Below are positions 26,517 through 44,986 of a DNA stretch of 64,000 nucleotides, in pieces (within the stretch, counting starts at the first letter, position 1; every line of letters starts with the position of its first letter). The notes beneath the pieces are model-generated. The model saw only the letters and a program-made list of their open reading frames with translations. It had not been told where the DNA came from and searched no databases. Position numbers and translations under genes: made by a program. This stretch comes from a virus: positions 36,855 to 100,854 of IMG/VR virus record IMGVR_UViG_3300046713_000096. One strand, written 5' to 3'.

Positions 26517-28201
26517 GGGTAACTACCTGAACGAGGGTAACTGTATGAACGACCGGGCCGACCTCGTCGCGCCAAAGGGGTCGACGGTTCTTCGGGTAAC
26601 TGCCTGACGGGTCATGCGCCAGCCGTCGACCACTCGCTCAGTAGGGCAAGCAGGTCGGGGCTCGTGCCGCACGCGGCCCGCCATTCGTGCCACCGGTCGA
26701 CCAGTGCCGAGACATCGTCGCGCGACGTGACCGGGCACGGTGTCTCGTTCCACCAAAACCACGTGACGACGAGCACGCTCGACATCTTCGCGCGCGTGTC
26801 GAGACAGATGGCCGCTGCATCGTTGACAGTGCCGCCCTTCTTCGCTTTCCCGCGCCAGTGCCAAACGCCCGCCCGGTCCTGCATCCATTTGTTTACGCCG
26901 CCCATTCGGCGAACAGTGCCACGGGCCCGGGGACAGTGCCAAGTCATCTGCGTCGCGCGGCCCGACCGACGGCGGACCGAGGTGTCAGCGGTAACGGGTA
27001 ACTGTTTGAACGAAGGCGCCTTTCGGGTAACTGTTTGAATGACACCCCGTGGGTAACTGATTGGCGGAAAACAGGCCCCGGGGCGGCTTCGGGTTTCATA
27101 CCCGGGGCCATGCCTGGCACTGTCGCTCGGATTCCCGAACGCGCGTCAGCGCGAACGAAGGGCCCTTCGAGCTGTCTCGCCTTTCATGGGTCATTCAGTT
27201 ACCCATCAGCTCGGCAGAATGGTCGAAGCGACAGCTCGACCCCTCTGCTCGCTCTGCCGAATCGACACCGCTGCCCCGTGGGCGATAAACCGCCCGCATA
27301 GACCGACCGATTAGTAGCGTCGCCCTTGTGGGTCCGCCATCACTGCCGACCGTGTAGGATAGGTCGGAAGGGAGCCCTCACTAGTGGGGAGGGGGTACCC
27401 CATTCATACAGTTACCCTACCTCGTTCACATAGTTACCCGAGGCCCGGCTGTACTACTGGGTAACTGTTAGAACGATGCCGGCCCCTCACGCCAATCATT
27501 CACACAGTTACCCTACACCGTTCTACTAGTTACCCGGCACACGGGTAACTGTCAGAACGAATCCAGGTAACCATGTGACCGATGCATACACCTGCACGAC
27601 CTGGATGCCCTGTCAGTCCTGTCGAGCTGCAGTAAGACAGGGCTAACAGGGGGTGGCGCAGGGGGCGGGGCGAGTCAGTTGGGACCGGGATGTTCACGCT
27701 GTGCTCTATTCGGGATTCCACAGATACAGCATGGATGAGCTGCACAGGGGGATGCTCTTTTCCCTGGCTCTCATACATACGCTGCAGGTGCACGCACAAC
27801 CGGGGTGCATGCGCGCTACTGATGGGTGAGAGCATAGCGTTACGCATGGATTGAGCTGACGTGGTGACAGGGGACAGAAGGTCACGTTTCCCCTACTGGC
27901 TCGTGTGGTGTATTCGGGGAATGCGCTTGATAGGTTGGGCGGTTGTTTTGTGGCTGGCACTGGGTTGCTGCACTCCTATCCCCGAGCTCTCGCGTACTGT
28001 GTAGAGGTGCATTCGTGCTGCCTAGCAAGGGGTTGCACGTACTAGCCTGCAGGCGCTTAGCGTCACGTAGCGGGCTTGCCCTATGCGCTCCTACTCCCAT
28101 GCTCTAGATGCGCACTTCGGCGAGCTCCGCTTTCAGGTCGTGTTTTCGGGCGCAGGTGAGTGCGTGAAGAGCTATGCTCGCATAGGGGTAACTGCGTGAA
28201 C
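26517..28201. repeat. Dispersed GGGTAACTGTNTGAAC repeats (about 14 copies, both orientations)
   Basis: Forward cores at 26517, 26535, 26594, 26996, 27025, 27051, 27459, 27543 and 28186. Reverse cores at 27196, 27409, 27431, 27505 and 27527. Confidence 0.85.
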
Positions 28202-35187: not shown

Positions 35188-35250
35188 CGACAGAGAGCCG
35201 CGTGCATCGAGCCCTGTGCGGGCCGCCGCTGCCTTTGCTCTCTGTCGACA
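35188..35250 (-). ncRNA. Structured leader/sRNA, family A, copy 1
   Basis: Begins at the predicted +1. Stem CGACAGAGAGC/GCTCTCTGTCG; a 38-nt core is identical to copy 2. Confidence 0.6.
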
Positions 35251-35284
35251 ACGTTCATACTAGCGCGGTTTCGCTTCAACGCAA

Positions 35285-35392
35285 CAACTATTTGCAGATG
35301 GTTTTCTAGGTGTATGCGTCCAGCGCACGCGCCCAATGCTAGCTATCTTCCCCCCGATCGAGAGGCGCTGAAGCCCGTAGAATCGTGCCAAC
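35285..35392. repeat. Block-conserved upstream element, copy 1
   Basis: Four blocks identical to 40395-40502, with 6/6/24-nt variable spacers. Confidence 0.75.
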
Positions 35393-38676: not shown

Positions 38677-38967
38677 TCATGACGCCACACCGAAAAACTT
38701 CTTGAACTCGGGCAGATTGCCGTGCCATGCCGCGATGTCGTTGATCGCTTCGGCAGCTTCGCTCGCGTCAGCCTTGCGCCACTGCTCGGCTACTGCGCAC
38801 GGCCCGAGCACCTTGCACGTCATCGGCACCCACACCGTCGTCGTGCCGCGCTTCGTCTGCGTCAGCACGTACTGTCGGCCGCTCGCGTTGTGGCGAAACC
38901 GTTGCCACATGTGCGCGCGAAACGTCTTCGTGTGAATCAGCAAGGTGTCTTTCGTCGTGTTGCCCAT
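38677..38967 (-). CDS. Leaderless hypothetical protein
   Basis: MGNTTK start. ATGA-coupled to a small ORF at 38495-38680. Confidence 0.7.
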   Translation of the reverse strand: MGNTTKDTLLIHTKTFRAHMWQRFRHNASGRQYVLTQTKRGTTTVWVPMTCKVLGPCAVAEQWRKADASEAAEAINDIAAWHGNLPEFKKFFGVAS

Positions 38968-39011: not shown

Positions 39012-39073
39012 TCGCATACACCATAGCCATTGTGGGTTCCAGTGTCACTGTAACCACAACTGTCGAGGCCCCT
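39012..39073 (-). ncRNA. Candidate sRNA, family B, copy 1
   Basis: The promoter copy is followed by AGGGGCCTCGAC...GGTTACAG...GAACCCACA.TGGCTATG and then the next promoter, with no ORF. Confidence 0.5.
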
Positions 39074-39274
39074 AAGTCCAGTATGGCGCGCGTTTCGCTT
39101 CAACGCAAGTCTTTTTTAGGCGGCTTCTTGTACCACTCGCGATCGCGTTTCGCGCGTGCACGTCGACGCAGCTCGCGCTCGACGAACCACCCCGCCGCCA
39201 AGACGAAGCCACACAGCACAAAGACGCCCGCGGCTTGCGCTGGCGTCTCGATCGAGTCTAGGCACATGCCTACA

Positions 39275-39577
39275 TCATACCGGGCCGCCCACGAACGCGA
39301 TGACGGCTTCGTCGCTGGCATGGCCCAAGATACGGCCCGCGGCTTTCCAGCTGTCAGAGCGGCGCACAATGCCGTCAGCGGCCACGAACGCAAGAGCCGA
39401 ACGCGACCCGCCCTCGGTCGACCAGAAGATCCGCGCGTACTTGCGCCCGAGCTCGAAGCCGAAGTCGTGATAGGTGGGCCGCCGACCGAGCTTCGCGGTC
39501 ATCAGGTCGGCGCGCGCGTTCAGCGCCGCTACGAAGGCCGTCGCGTGCGCGCTGATGCTCTCGGTCGTCATGGTCAT
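39275..39577 (-). CDS. Conserved phage hypothetical protein downstream of structured leader copy 2
   Basis: GRKYARI...AFV...SWKA pattern. Confidence 0.7.
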   Translation of the reverse strand: MTMTTESISAHATAFVAALNARADLMTAKLGRRPTYHDFGFELGRKYARIFWSTEGGSRSALAFVAADGIVRRSDSWKAAGRILGHASDEAVIAFVGGPV

Positions 39578-39588
39578 CTCTTCCCGGC

Positions 39589-39655
39589 TGTCGACAGCGA
39601 GCCGCATTGCATCGAGCCCTGTGCGGGCCGCCGCTGCCTTTGCTCGCCGTCGACA
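39589..39655 (-). ncRNA. Structured leader/sRNA, family A, copy 2
   Basis: Stem TGTCGACGGCGAGC/GCTCGCTGTCGACA; one compensatory change relative to copy 1. Confidence 0.6.
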
Positions 39656-39840
39656 ATGCTCATACTAGCGCGGTTTCGCTTCAACGCAACGACTTTTTAG
39701 CGCCGGTTAAATACCCGTCCGATATCCCAATGAAACCGGGCCCATCCATACACGAATGCCACGTCTTCGACGAAGGTCTTGATCCACTTTCGCACTGTAC
39801 TTCCCCTGATCCCCGAGCTTGCCCTATCGTGTCGCCCACC

Positions 39841-40125
39841 ATGGACGAACGCGAGAGATCTCTGACGTTGTACTACCGCGAGCTACCGGACGGCTTCGAG
39901 GTCGCCGTCTTGCCGCTCACCTATGGCCACGCGCACCTGTGCTACGGCAGACAGGGCGACGACGGCTACATGGACAGCTATTTCTACGCCGATCCCGCCG
40001 TTGCGAGGGCGGCTGCCGAAGTGTGGGACGGTCAGCACGACCCGCTTGATGGCTGGTACCGTCACCCGAGCACGGGTCGCCGTCGCAAGGATGGTGACCC
40101 GAAGCACGAATATTTCTTGCCCTGA
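39841..40125 (+). CDS. Hypothetical protein
   Basis: MDERER start; DPLDGWYRHPSTGRRR motif. Confidence 0.6.
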   Translation: MDERERSLTLYYRELPDGFEVAVLPLTYGHAHLCYGRQGDDGYMDSYFYADPAVARAAAEVWDGQHDPLDGWYRHPSTGRRRKDGDPKHEYFLP

Positions 40126-40132
40126 AGCGGCT

Positions 40133-40360
40133 TCAGCCGGCCAGCGGCCCGAGCCCGAGCATCGCGAGCTCACGGAAAAGTGCGTTCGTGCGCTCGACTG
40201 CATCCCATCCGCGCGCGATGCCCTTCTCGTCGTGCTTGCCCTTGACCGCTTCGACGACGGCATGTTCTGCCTTGCGTGCGGCGTCCAGGTCGGCGCGAAT
40301 CTGCGCCTCGGTGCGTGTCGTCTTCGTCGTCTTCGTCGTCTTGTTGCTGCGCTTGCCCAT
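40133..40360 (-). CDS. Leaderless small protein
   Basis: MGKRSNKTTKTTKTT start. Confidence 0.7.
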   Translation of the reverse strand: MGKRSNKTTKTTKTTRTEAQIRADLDAARKAEHAVVEAVKGKHDEKGIARGWDAVERTNALFRELAMLGLGPLAG

Positions 40361-40394
40361 GACCTAAGACTAGCGTGGTTTCTCTTCAACGCAA

Positions 40395-40502
40395 CAACTA
40401 TTTGCAGATGACCGTTTAGGTGTATGCGTCCAGCGCACGCCCCGAGTGCTAGCTATCTGGGCATCCTTCTCGGCCGCTACGCGCCCGTAGAATCGTGCCA
40501 AC
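40395..40502. repeat. Block-conserved upstream element, copy 2, between divergent promoter repeats
   Basis: Same four blocks and spacer lengths as 35285-35392. Confidence 0.75.
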
Positions 40503-40521
40503 ACGTGAGCCTAAAAAGTTG

Positions 40522-40549
40522 TTGCGTTGAAGCGATGTGCTGCTACGAT
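40522..40549 (+). promoter_or_regulatory. Promoter repeat copy for the membrane protein gene
   Basis: TTGCGT-TGAAGCGATGTGCTGC-TACGAT, then 8 nt, then ATG. Confidence 0.7.
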
Positions 40550-40557
40550 GTCTCTTC

Positions 40558-41631
40558 ATGGACAGCAACACACGACGCACGATCGGCCTTTGCGGGATCG
40601 TCGCCGCTTACCTCGCCTCGCGCGCGTTTCTTCTCGGCCAATGGACGGGCCCAAACGCTTGGATGTACGGCCTGTTCGCCGACGCCGCGAGCTGCGGAAG
40701 AAATCCCTACCTTCTGCCTGAAGGTGGGTCGATCGGCCCGGAATTGGCTGACTATCCGCCACTGTGGATGGTCGCGTTCGGCGCGTTGGCGCAGTGGATG
40801 CGCAGCGACTACGCCGTGCGAATCGTCTGCTATGCCGGCGATGCTGTGCTGATGCTCGCCGCCCTGCGCTTCGCACGAAAGCGCCTGACCGCCGACGCCG
40901 CTGCGACCGCTGCGCTCGTCGCGCTCAACCCCGCTTGGTTTTGGGCCGACATGTGGATGCTGCAATACAAGGCATGGGCAACGGCTGGCCTCGTCTTCCT
41001 TGCGACGACCGAGTCGGCGCTCGTGACCGGGGCGCTCGCTGGCGCCTTTCTGTTGCCCGGTGTCTTGCTGCCGATGCGCTGGCTCAAGGATCGGGACTGG
41101 CGCGCACTGATGGGCGGCACCGCGGTCGCAGTGGCCTTGTGGCTGCCATGGTTCCCAAGCTCGATCATGGGCGTGCTAGCTCGTCGCTCGGCCGCGCCGC
41201 ACAACACGGGCTATTGGGGTGAGTCACTCGGTGGCTACCTGCCCCGCGCCGTGCAGCCGTTCCTTCTCGCAGTCGCGGTCGGGCTCGCGCTCGTCATCAT
41301 GGCACGCGGTCGCGCGCCCCTCGCGGTGCGCTTTGCTGGCGCGACCTCGCTCGTCATCGCATGCATGCACGACGCGATGGTCAATCGCTGGCTACCGTTT
41401 GCGCTCGTGCCGCTGCTCACCTGTGAGCTTGGCGCGCGCTCACGGTGGGTCGCCTTCGGCCTGTGCTGCATCAGCTGCGCTGCGACCTGGAATGTGCTCG
41501 TGTTCCGCGCCGACGTCCCCGCCATCGTGGGCGTACTCATCAACGCCCCGCTGCCGCTGGCGGCATGGGCGGCCTACCGCAACGGCCAGCGCCGCCCATG
41601 CCCCGTGTTGCTGGCGCAGCCGTCAGCGTAA
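40558..41631 (+). CDS. Polytopic membrane protein, GT-C glycosyltransferase-like
   Basis: Many TM helices; GRNPY...DYPPLW in the first loop and ALNP motif. Confidence 0.6.
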   Translation: MDSNTRRTIGLCGIVAAYLASRAFLLGQWTGPNAWMYGLFADAASCGRNPYLLPEGGSIGPELADYPPLWMVAFGALAQWMRSDYAVRIVCYAGDAVLMLAALRFARKRLTADAAATAALVALNPAWFWADMWMLQYKAWATAGLVFLATTESALVTGALAGAFLLPGVLLPMRWLKDRDWRALMGGTAVAVALWLPWFPSSIMGVLARRSAAPHNTGYWGESLGGYLPRAVQPFLLAVAVGLALVIMARGRAPLAVRFAGATSLVIACMHDAMVNRWLPFALVPLLTCELGARSRWVAFGLCCISCAATWNVLVFRADVPAIVGVLINAPLPLAAWAAYRNGQRRPCPVLLAQPSA

Positions 41632-41805
41632 CCAGCAAGCGAGCAGAGCAAGCGCGCACAAAACGTTCACGATCCATCCGATCGCGCTCAGCACGATCGG
41701 GTTGCCCATGATCCGGCCTTGCCAAGCGTGCGCGAAGATGGCCAGCGCGACGACACAAGACGCTACAGCGTTCGTTTCCATGTGCATGTGTGATGCCTCC
41801 GACCG

Positions 41806-42729
41806 CTAGATAGCTGGCGCGTCGAGGTCACGCGGGTCGCGGAAGCCCTGAAAGCTGGCGATCCGCGGCTTGTCTTTGCGCCCGTGATCCTGGAAACGGT
41901 AGCGCACGATCCGCCCGACCATGATGTCGCGACACTGGAAAATGCGCCTGCGCAGCTCCCATGTGAGGCCGATCCCCGTCCCGATCTTGAACTCGACGCC
42001 CGTCTGCAGGTCGCGCACGACGAGCTTGCCCATCACGCCGCCGTCGACCTTGTTCGCCTTCAACGTGCGCCGCTTCGTCTGTCCGAGCTCGCCGACGAAG
42101 GCTTCGTTTTGGTTGTGCTGAAGTTCGAGCACAGCCACGATCACCGCCTCACTGTCGGTAAAGCGCTTCAGCTTCGACAGGTAGCCCTGACGCAGCGTTG
42201 CACGGCCGCACTTGTAGGGGCCTTCGAGCGCACGAAGCATCACGCCTTCATGCCCGGCTGCGAGCATCTCTTTCTCATATGCCGCGAGCGATTCGGGGGC
42301 GTCGATCCACACGTGCCGACACTCGATCACGTGCTTCCACGCCTCGCCGTGTTGCTTGAAGGTCTGACGCACGTCGCGCACGCGCGCAGCGAAGGCCTCG
42401 CCCGGAAGCACCGGCACGCGGTCGAACACCACGAAGAACCAGTCGTCGGGGGGTGGCTTCTCGCGCGACATGACCGCGCTCTCGACCGCTTGGAACGTCG
42501 CGGGGTATGGAAGCATCAGCTCGCCGTCGAAGCCCTCTGCGTGGCGGCCAAGCGCTTCGAGCACGGCCCGCATGTGCACATTGGGGATCGGCTTCAGCGA
42601 CCGAGCAACGGCCTTGCCGTCGCGAATCACGCACCGGATGCCGTCATACTTCGGGCTAGCCAGCACAGGGTAGCTGACCGCGCTCGCGTCCTTCAGCGTG
42701 GCGGCAAGCATCGGGCGAAACTGTGGCAT
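41806..42729 (-). CDS. lig: ATP-dependent DNA ligase
   Basis: SPKYDGIR, FDGEL, EGVMLR, KLKRF and FKIGTG motifs. Confidence 0.93.
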   Translation of the reverse strand: MPQFRPMLAATLKDASAVSYPVLASPKYDGIRCVIRDGKAVARSLKPIPNVHMRAVLEALGRHAEGFDGELMLPYPATFQAVESAVMSREKPPPDDWFFVVFDRVPVLPGEAFAARVRDVRQTFKQHGEAWKHVIECRHVWIDAPESLAAYEKEMLAAGHEGVMLRALEGPYKCGRATLRQGYLSKLKRFTDSEAVIVAVLELQHNQNEAFVGELGQTKRRTLKANKVDGGVMGKLVVRDLQTGVEFKIGTGIGLTWELRRRIFQCRDIMVGRIVRYRFQDHGRKDKPRIASFQGFRDPRDLDAPAI

Positions 42730-42810
42730 GTCAGGCCTTCCCAAAAAGAAAAAGGGCGGACCGCTCGCACGGCCCGCCCGCCCGTCGGGGGGGTGACAGG
42801 TCATCTGACC

Positions 42811-43677
42811 CTAGTACTTGTACCCGGCCTGCACAAGCAACTTGCCGAGCTTCGATGTCTCGCCCGGGATGTGTGAGCCAAGCGCAAGCCGTATGCCGAA
42901 GACGGTTTCGGGTTCGAGCTTCGCCGACAGATCTTCGTCGTCGACGAGCTTCACGAGCACGCGCTTCGGTACGCCTGTCACCTTGCCCGCCGCCTTCTTG
43001 GCGCTCGACGTAGTGACCTTCCGCTTGCCGTTCTTCTTCGGCGTGGCGCCCGCTAGAAGCTTGTCGAGCTGCGCAACTTGCTCTTCCTTTTCCAGGCCAT
43101 GCAGCTCGGCCGCTGCGCTGGCGCTGATGTCGCCGTTCGCGACCGCCTTCTTGACCTTCGAGGGCAGCGACGCCATTTTGACCCAATTTTTGACCGCCGC
43201 CGTTGTCACATTGAAGTGGTTTGCAGCGGCCTTGTAGTCGTTGCCGTTGCGTGCGAGCAGACGCATGCACTTCTCGGCCTTCAAGACGACGTTGTCGTCT
43301 TGTCGGTGCTCGTTCAGCGCAATCATGACGCCCTGCACGTGCACGTCGTCACCGTTCTCGAAGACGGCGCTGACGTATACGAGCTCTTCCCCGAGCTTCT
43401 TCAGTCGCTTGTTGGCTTCGCGCGCATGGCGCAGGCGCCCGCGACCGTCGACGACTTCGACACGGCCTTCGGCGCACTTACGAAGCACGATCGGCTCTTT
43501 GACGCCGATCGCCATGATATTGAGCACAGTCGCCTCGACGAGCGGCAAGTGAATGCGCTCATCGTACAGCTCGTGCTCGGGTCCATCTTTGGTGTCGAGC
43601 CCGATGATCACGGGCTCGTTCGGATCGTACTGATGCAGATTCCCGCGCTTAGCGGGCATGATAGCGGCAGCTCCCAT
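42811..43677 (-). CDS. ParB/Srx-like protein with HTH
   Basis: GVKEPIVLR, VVDGRGRLR, LNEHR, and an HTH-like AANHFNVTTAAVKNWV. Confidence 0.75.
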   Translation of the reverse strand: MGAAAIMPAKRGNLHQYDPNEPVIIGLDTKDGPEHELYDERIHLPLVEATVLNIMAIGVKEPIVLRKCAEGRVEVVDGRGRLRHAREANKRLKKLGEELVYVSAVFENGDDVHVQGVMIALNEHRQDDNVVLKAEKCMRLLARNGNDYKAAANHFNVTTAAVKNWVKMASLPSKVKKAVANGDISASAAAELHGLEKEEQVAQLDKLLAGATPKKNGKRKVTTSSAKKAAGKVTGVPKRVLVKLVDDEDLSAKLEPETVFGIRLALGSHIPGETSKLGKLLVQAGYKY

Positions 43678-43822
43678 GATTCAAGACTCCCTGCGTTTTA
43701 TACTTCGACATGCCGACATACCCCGGCTTGTGCGATAGCGATGACCCGAAGCCCTGTCAAGCGCCACTTTTTTCGCGTAGCGGGCCCGGGGGAAGTGTTC
43801 CGGGCCCGAGCTTCGTTTCACG

Positions 43823-44146
43823 TCACAGCGACAGGTAAAGGCCTGTCCCTTCTGAAATTATGCGGCGCAGCTGGCCAACGTCGACGCGCTCGACTTCCTG
43901 AAGTTGCTTCACACCGCCCGTGACCGCGCCCGTCTTCGCGTTGAATCCGATTTTCGTCACGCGATCAAAACGCACCGTGTACAGGTCATCAGCGGTCAGG
44001 GTCACTGTAACGTGCGTCACCTTCTTGCCGTTTGTGCCGATTTTGAACTGCAGGTGCGAGGGGCCGCCAAGCAGGTTCTTCGCGCCCATCATGGCGAATG
44101 CACGATTGCCGATTTGTTCTGCGATGATGTTTGCGACGTTCGACAT
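43823..44146 (-). CDS. Leaderless conserved phage hypothetical protein
   Basis: IAEQIGNRAFAMMGAK and DDLYTVRF. Confidence 0.75.
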   Translation of the reverse strand: MSNVANIIAEQIGNRAFAMMGAKNLLGGPSHLQFKIGTNGKKVTHVTVTLTADDLYTVRFDRVTKIGFNAKTGAVTGGVKQLQEVERVDVGQLRRIISEGTGLYLSL

Positions 44147-44191
44147 ACCCATATGGTAGCGCGCGTTCGCTTCAACGCAACCACTTTTTAA

Positions 44192-44252
44192 CGGACATGT
44201 CATAGCCAATGTGGGTTCTTGTGTAGCTGTAACCCGTGCCGTCGAGGCCCCT
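44192..44252 (-). ncRNA. Candidate sRNA, family B, copy 2
   Basis: Same conserved blocks and spacing as 39012-39073, between two promoter repeats. Confidence 0.5.
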
Positions 44253-44639: not shown

Positions 44640-44986
44640 CAGTTAGCCCGCCGCACGTCTCTTCCGTACAGCGCGCGCATTTCGAGCACCTTCGTCACAG
44701 CGTGATCGAGGTCGTCGCACTGGTAGGCCTCGAACGTCATCCACAGGTCGAACGGGTCGAGTCGGTGCACGCGCGCCTTGTGCGCGATCTCGATCGCCTG
44801 CCACACCTGCAGGCCGTCGGTTTCGTGCGCGTCCAAAAGCCGGTAGACCGCCAAAGCGTCTTTGATCGAGCCGTCGTCGTGCAGCATCGCGATCGCGCCG
44901 TATAGCCCACACAGTGCACGACCTATCGCACTCGCCATGGTGGAAAACATGGCGAGAAGTACCGCGCCGCCTGCCCGGGCGCTGGA

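Follow-up and report, generated by a model that had tools for sequence, protein, structure and literature searches.

The window analysed here comprises 64,000 nucleotides (nt) of DNA, bases 36855-100854 of a 100,854-bp IMG/VR virus record (IMGVR_UViG_3300046713_000096, hereafter G000). Its minus strand carries two copies of an element, termed family B, which appears to be a selected non-coding cassette of the early-gene array of the phage. The payload of this cassette would be the first ~43 transcribed nucleotides behind a dedicated promoter subclass. Tentatively, this payload is interpreted as a 5' leader of read-through transcripts that functions at the RNA level and is recognised by its sequence; this explanation is ranked first, with a DNA operator or roadblock close behind. 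Nothing that matches family B is present in Rfam or among cultured phages, plasmids and reference genomes. Window coordinates are used throughout.

The G000 record is rated 98% complete, and the G+C content of the window is ~62%. The encoded proteins include a DnaE-type polymerase, RecA, an SbcCD-like pair, a 5'-3' exonuclease, a ligase, a ParB-like protein and the terminase. No close cultured phage was found for G000; its relatives in IMG/VR that have the same promoter motif are G001 (107,690 bp) and G002 (81,974 bp). Family B resides in a minus-strand gene array (~30.5-45.5 kb), where each gene stands behind one copy of a 13-nt motif, TTGCGTTGAAGCG, with 31 matches in the window at two or fewer mismatches against 4.3 expected. 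The standard promoters of the window with an unambiguous -10 region consist of TTGCGT, a spacer of exactly 16 nt and a TAnnnT hexamer, and the only exceptions are the two family-B copies. An ATG is found 6 nt past the -10 hexamer in 18 of the window promoter copies, and the genes of these cassettes are therefore of the leaderless type.

Each family-B cassette (39108-39002 and 44287-44181, respectively) is made up of the promoter motif, a conserved non-coding stretch and then the next promoter, at a promoter-to-promoter distance of 107 nt in both copies. A profile built from the copies finds only these two sites in G000, with E-values of 2.6e-20 and 2.5e-19, which is well above what chance would give. 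The sites, on the minus strand, are at the positions given in the original prediction, which was derived from the sequence alone. The 17-nt promoter spacers described there are correct and, furthermore, specific to family B: all three known copies (two in G000 and one in L061, a contig described below) have this spacer, compared to 16 nt in 56 of 56 other promoters with an unambiguous -10 region in G000, G001, G002 and L061. The predicted promoter subclass, which is conserved together with the element, additionally has a GGnAnT discriminator (GGACwT in both G000 copies) and a -10 hexamer with A in the second and T in the sixth position. The position held by the leaderless ATG in 18 other cassettes is occupied by AGG. 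The core of the element is 43 nt long, contains 34 invariant bases and consists of block I, a free 6-nt spacer and block II. Copies 1 and 2 of the core are identical at 34 of 43 positions. Conservation sets in at the predicted +1, and the folded RNA of another non-coding family of this array, family A, likewise starts at about +1 or +2. All family-B copies have the same orientation relative to transcription.

The third copy was found in a metagenome scan with block II on L061, an independent 1.5-kb contig with ~59% G+C. Its cassette has the 17-nt spacer, a GGGAAT discriminator, the AGG and blocks I and II that are identical to those of copy 1. It is flanked by homologues of a 103-amino-acid (aa) gene (44642-44950 in the window) and of the 107-aa phrog_9437 gene (43826-44146), with ParB next, which is the gene position of copy 2 in G000, where an additional 114-aa zinc-ribbon gene is present ahead of the copy. 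In G001, the same two flanking genes have one standard promoter between them and family B is absent. Comparison of the three loci thus shows that the whole cassette is gained or lost in one piece at the promoter repeats. In having its own promoter, the same boundaries and unit presence or absence, it resembles the gene cassettes of the array. BLAST, pattern and profile searches found no family-B copy in G001 or G002, and an exact-pattern scan of IMG/VR with block II or with block I plus the spacer gave no matches. The metagenome exact-pattern scan returned one true match (L061) and one chance match. Two chance matches lacking the flanking blocks, and no true match to block II, were found in 185,579 species genomes; cultured phages had no match to the element, and plasmids had a single 31-nt chance match within a Caballeronia coding region. 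For the 108-aa protein encoded downstream of the element, about 20 closely related homologues were identified, and their contigs probably hold more family-B copies.

The neutral yardstick for this comparison is provided by the four-fold sites of three flanking genes, at which G000 and the L061 phage are identical in 63 of 128 cases (~49%). Across the core (+1 to +43), copy 1 and L061 are identical at 38 of 43 positions (P = 7e-8), and copy 2 and L061 at 35 of 43 (P = 1e-5). Blocks I and II alone match L061 at 37/37 positions in copy 1 and at 33/37 in copy 2. Between the phages, the 6-nt spacer (1-2/6 identical) and the segment from +44 to +61 (6-8/18) are scrambled. Within G000, copies 1 and 2 are likewise scrambled in the free 6-nt stretch, in the tail and in the spacer of the promoter, so the duplication must be old. 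A recent duplication followed by random drift, which the original prediction named as the finding that would refute it, is rejected: neutral positions are scrambled and the blocks are identical across two phages. Judged by these alignments, the family-B blocks are under purifying selection and do not stem from a young duplication.

The cassette was originally described as free of open reading frames (ORFs) and equipped with its own promoter, and this is borne out, the promoter repeat being present in all three copies. By its sequence properties, the payload is non-coding. A micro-protein gene in the frame that starts at the AGG is the least likely of all explanations considered. This frame is open in 3/3 copies, and its codons 7-16 show four synonymous versus three non-synonymous changes, which is not significant (P about 0.07). 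However, there is no start codon at or before the AGG in any copy, and the G+C content at third codon positions is 0.45-0.69, compared to 0.72-0.93 (mean 0.84) in 18 cassette genes. Codons 5-6 and everything past codon 16 are unrelated, and the frames differ in length. In a collection of 5.8 billion proteins, no candidate was found for the 41-aa ORF overlapping the L061 copy. A search for the remnant of a gene (tblastx and blastn-short against the three phage genomes) gave only the promoter repeat. Likenesses to sigma-54, CRP, LexA, DnaA-box and boxA sequences, assessed by eye, are not kept in all three copies, and a sigma-70-like promoter inside copy 1 is not conserved in the others.

In the tentatively favoured interpretation, host RNA polymerase would start at the A of block I, as the fixed register of the -10 hexamer implies, and would copy block I, the six free bases and block II. 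Unhindered by a terminator, it would then read on through the next promoter and into the genes that follow. A phage or host factor would read the leader by its sequence, the small block II hairpin being dispensable, and the leader would mark or control the polymerase or the transcript that bears it, acting in cis and at the RNA level. Block II is informative here. In both copy 1 and L061, 9 of 10 pairs of its palindrome are symmetric, a value reached by 14 of 20,000 shuffles. In copy 2, only 5 of 10 pairs are symmetric and the dyad is lost, with 21 of 25 bases kept; likewise, the inner stem of block II is present in copy 1 and L061, and three of its four pairs are broken in copy 2. A copy that has no dyad yet is otherwise conserved indicates that the constraint is on an asymmetric sequence and not on a hairpin or a simple dyad. 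It is doubtful that family B goes further and constitutes a new regulatory or counter-defence RNA, i.e. a short unstructured RNA (or a polymerase marked by making it) that is read by a phage or host protein.

Several points weigh against a leader. None of the three copies has a stable fold: RNA folding gives z-scores from -1.1 to +0.8 relative to shuffles at several lengths, with most constructs between -0.4 and +0.8, and family A, folded identically as a control, gives -3.8 and -5.5. The three-copy consensus fold is weak (-7.95 kcal/mol), its covariation term is penalising (+1.45) and it has no compensatory pairs, although covariation would hardly be visible because there are only three copies, from two phages. 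No terminator is found on the minus strand between the element and the next promoter, which leaves the 3' end undefined. This absence is not special, as the cassettes contain only two minus-strand terminator-like sites in 16.6 kb, below the shuffled count. The start sites at 39073 and 44252 are predictions only, and the extent of the element, -1 to +43, also suits a repressor or a roadblock. The downstream genes of G000 are leaderless from their own promoters, and the benefit of a long leader is not obvious. Finally, all of the evidence except the loss of the dyad in copy 2 fits a DNA operator equally well.

In such an operator or roadblock, a phage or host protein would bind the -1 to +43 duplex and either repress the family-B promoter or block or insulate transcription that enters the next cassette, and it would bind copy 2 with lower affinity. 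This explanation is possible and nearly as likely as the leader. It would account for the overlap of the element with the start site, the 21-bp imperfect palindrome of block II in copy 1 and L061, the bipartite layout with a free spacer of fixed length and the absence of an RNA fold signal. It does not sit well with copy 2, which lacks four of the nine symmetric pairs and keeps all other bases, or with the size of the element, since 34 invariant bases over 43 far exceed the need of one dimeric binder. Nor was a candidate binder found: Pfam reports no DNA-binding domain in 18 of the 20 neighbouring early proteins that were scanned, the exceptions being ParB (helix-turn-helix) and the 114-aa protein (weak zinc ribbon). 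A centromere or operator bound by ParB was considered and rejected, as G001 encodes a ParB homologue (204/284 residues identical) yet has no family B; the L061 ParB is closer to that of G001 (129/159) than to that of G000 (113/156).

A discrete trans-acting small RNA (a decoy, guide or anti-defence RNA) that is cut or stalled before the next promoter was the preference of the original prediction, which also allowed for an alternative leader or a DNA site. It is unlikely. In its favour are the separate promoter of the cassette, a conserved 5' block without structure as a possible seed and an AU-rich tail that might be cleaved, but the cassette has neither a terminator or 3' hairpin nor a stable fold, and its best complementary targets in the phage are 10-11-nt matches with E-values of 4-15, i.e. 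not above chance. Hence, of that hedged proposal, the non-coding state and the dedicated promoter stand, and a folded small RNA of the family-A kind (z ~0 for family B) does not. The proposed pairing of GGCC with GGCT fails because the last block involved (TGGCTATG) is not kept in L061. Guide-like variable segments have also lost ground, as the two 2-nt segments do not vary between copy 1 and L061, and only copy 2 differs. The suggested comparison with CRISPR repeats, tRNA and tmRNA gave no look-alike in the 185,579 species genomes, which argues against such mimicry at that stringency. Rfam has no match at the gathering score in the window (the best local E-values, 0.96 and 7.9, are far below threshold), and ARAGORN finds no tRNA or tmRNA.

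Somewhat less probable again are other roles as a DNA site, in which the element would be nicked on one strand, serve for recombination at the edges of the 5.2-kb module that separates the copies, or act as an auxiliary origin with the family-B transcript as primer. Two direct copies do bracket the parB-ligase module, and the nick consensus sequences of phiKMV and tf have a form similar to family B (PMC3517423): CGAC followed by the free spacer and a conserved block recalls the phiKMV-type consensus, and block II contains an 8/9 match to that of phage tf. However, known nick sites are 9-19 nt long, have more copies and are not tied to promoters, and the sub-motifs are not enriched elsewhere in the genome. 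An iteron field at 26.5-28.2 kb is a better origin candidate, the GC skew does not turn here, and no recombinase or nickase gene was found adjoining either copy. More improbable still is that the element has no function of its own and is just one more promoter in tandem or what is left of a deleted gene cassette. Gene-free tandem early promoters do exist in other phages, e.g. A1-A3 of T7, which have no intervening genes. Recombination between promoter repeats also reshuffles arrays of this type, as in the PeSL cassettes of T4-type phages (PMC2839356). Neither explains islands of 12 and 25 identical bases amid scrambled flanks in two phages whose neutral sites are saturated (P = 7e-8 for copy 1 versus L061).

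Table 1. Parts of the two family-B cassettes and the promoter motifs that follow them (window coordinates).
Feature	Position	Strand	Remarks
Copy 1 promoter repeat motif, 13 nt, covers the -35 region	39108-39096	-	Exact repeat match; followed by 17-nt spacer
Copy 1 -10 hexamer CATACT	39085-39080	-	
Copy 1 -10 hexamer plus discriminator GGACTT	39085-39074	-	GGnAnT discriminator common to 3/3 family-B promoters
Copy 1 block I (AGGGGCCTCGAC), from predicted +1 at 39073	39073-39062	-	12/12 identical in all three copies
Copy 1 free 6-nt spacer	39061-39056	-	Fixed length; 1-2/6 agreement for any copy pair
Copy 1 block II, 25 nt; first 21 nt form an imperfect palindrome	39055-39031	-	25/25 versus L061, 21/25 versus copy 2
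Copy 1 tail into A-rich upstream element of next promoter	39030-39002	-	+44 to +61: 6/18 versus L061
Standard promoter motif after copy 1	39001-38989	-	Next cassette: leaderless 96-aa gene, ATG at 38967
Copy 2 promoter repeat motif, 13 nt	44287-44275	-	17-nt spacer
Copy 2 -10 hexamer TACACT	44264-44259	-	
Copy 2 -10 hexamer plus discriminator GGACAT	44264-44253	-	
Copy 2 block I, from predicted +1 at 44252	44252-44241	-	
Copy 2 free 6-nt spacer	44240-44235	-	
Copy 2 block II variant	44234-44210	-	Four changes in two adjacent pairs, inner symmetry gone; 5/10 symmetric pairs
Copy 2 tail and upstream element of next promoter	44209-44181	-	
Standard promoter motif after copy 2	44180-44168	-	Next cassette: 107-aa phrog_9437 gene, ATG at 44146

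Among known systems, family B can be compared to the nut sites of lambda. Both occur in two copies per genome, each placed shortly after an early promoter and on the strand that is transcribed, and both combine a conserved linear box, a free spacer of fixed length and a box with a small hairpin, with differences of a few bases between copies. Unlike in lambda, block I has no resemblance to boxA, the hairpin is lost in copy 2 and the element begins at +1. No candidate for an N-like, arginine-rich antiterminator or for a Nus-factor box was identified, Pfam being blank for the neighbouring small proteins.

The closest comparison within the phage itself is family A (35188-35252 and 39589-39657, minus strand), which has the same promoter repeat, starts at about +1, is non-coding and is present in two copies in G000. 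It differs from family B in that it folds strongly (the z-scores of -3.8 and -5.5 given above), has further copies in G001 and G002, including a tandem pair in G001, and is directly followed by a gene that has a ribosome-binding site, whereas after family B another promoter comes next. Preceding such genes, family A looks like a structured 5' leader and not like a free-standing RNA gene.

Dyad-symmetric phage operators, too, overlap the transcription start, and two of the three family-B copies have a 21-bp imperfect palindrome. Unlike such operators, the conserved part of family B is 43 bp long and asymmetric, and one copy lacks the dyad. The PeSL cassettes of T4-type phages consist of a strong sigma-70-like early promoter and a terminator stem-loop (Arbiol et al. 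2010, PMC2839356). As in the array of G000, the early promoter is repeated around small genes, the region is plastic, and relatives differ by whole cassettes. However, the terminator stem-loop is absent at family B, and the family-B payload is itself conserved.

The tails of the two cassettes have peculiarities of their own. That of copy 1 contains an inverted 10-nt word, CGCATACACC (39013-39022), which is absent from copy 2 and L061. The same word is found in both copies of a 108-bp element (35285-35392 and 40395-40502) upstream of two other promoters. The tail of copy 2 contains an ATG (44203, minus strand) in frame with the 107-aa gene (43823-44203), so that family-B transcripts of copy 2 could encode a form of this protein that is 19 residues longer. 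No such N-terminal extension is possible in copy 1 or L061.

The 107-aa phrog_9437 protein (43826-44146, minus strand) has a confident structure model (predicted local distance difference test score, pLDDT, of 90.7) with two helices, a five-stranded sheet and one helix. Its structural matches are middling, and the DNA-binding domain of T4 MotA is among many ties (Z of 5.6 and 5.0). Ahead of parB is a G+C-rich hairpin without a T run (43781-43808), which is also present in L061. The parB gene has its own canonical promoter-like site (43732-43760, minus strand; TTGACA, 17 nt, TATCGC) and a leader with GGAG, unlike the surrounding repeat-promoter cassettes. A strong intrinsic terminator with an 11-bp stem, nine pairs of which are G-C, lies between parB and the ligase gene (42779-42754 plus a T run, region 42745-42779, minus strand). 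Transcription that starts at copy 2 would therefore pass through the next promoter, the 107-aa gene and parB before it stops at this terminator. The terminator falls within the long ligase ORF (41806-42804), so a later ATG near 42729 (MPQFRPML) is the probable start of the ligase.

In the iteron field (26517-28200), an 18-nt unit starting with GGGTAACTG and ending with GAACGA is present 14 times, in both orientations, and this field is the better candidate for an origin or centromere. The unit and block II have only the word GTAAC/GTTAC in common.

The array promoters of the relatives are found at 34.7-44.2 kb in G001 and 62.6-80.3 kb in G002. The 13-nt promoter motif spans about -34 to -22 and is conserved far above the need of a -35 hexamer; it may be read by a phage-specific factor. 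The cassettes of G000 are nearly all leaderless, unlike those of G001, G002 and L061, many of which have a conserved leader of ~35-45 nt (TGTCAGCAACG ... ACGGAGC ... ATG).

With only three copies known, family B stays a candidate and not a mechanism. It belongs to a phage lineage in which early genes are packed in dozens of near-identical promoter cassettes, mostly giving leaderless mRNAs, and it indicates that the payload of such a cassette can be conserved and non-coding and can come with a separate variant of the promoter. The well-bounded 43-nt element offers a handle on transcription control in the cassette array. Should the doubtful reading as a short regulatory or counter-defence RNA hold true, family B would be a new kind of such phage RNA, made from a dedicated promoter subclass within an array of leaderless-gene cassettes.

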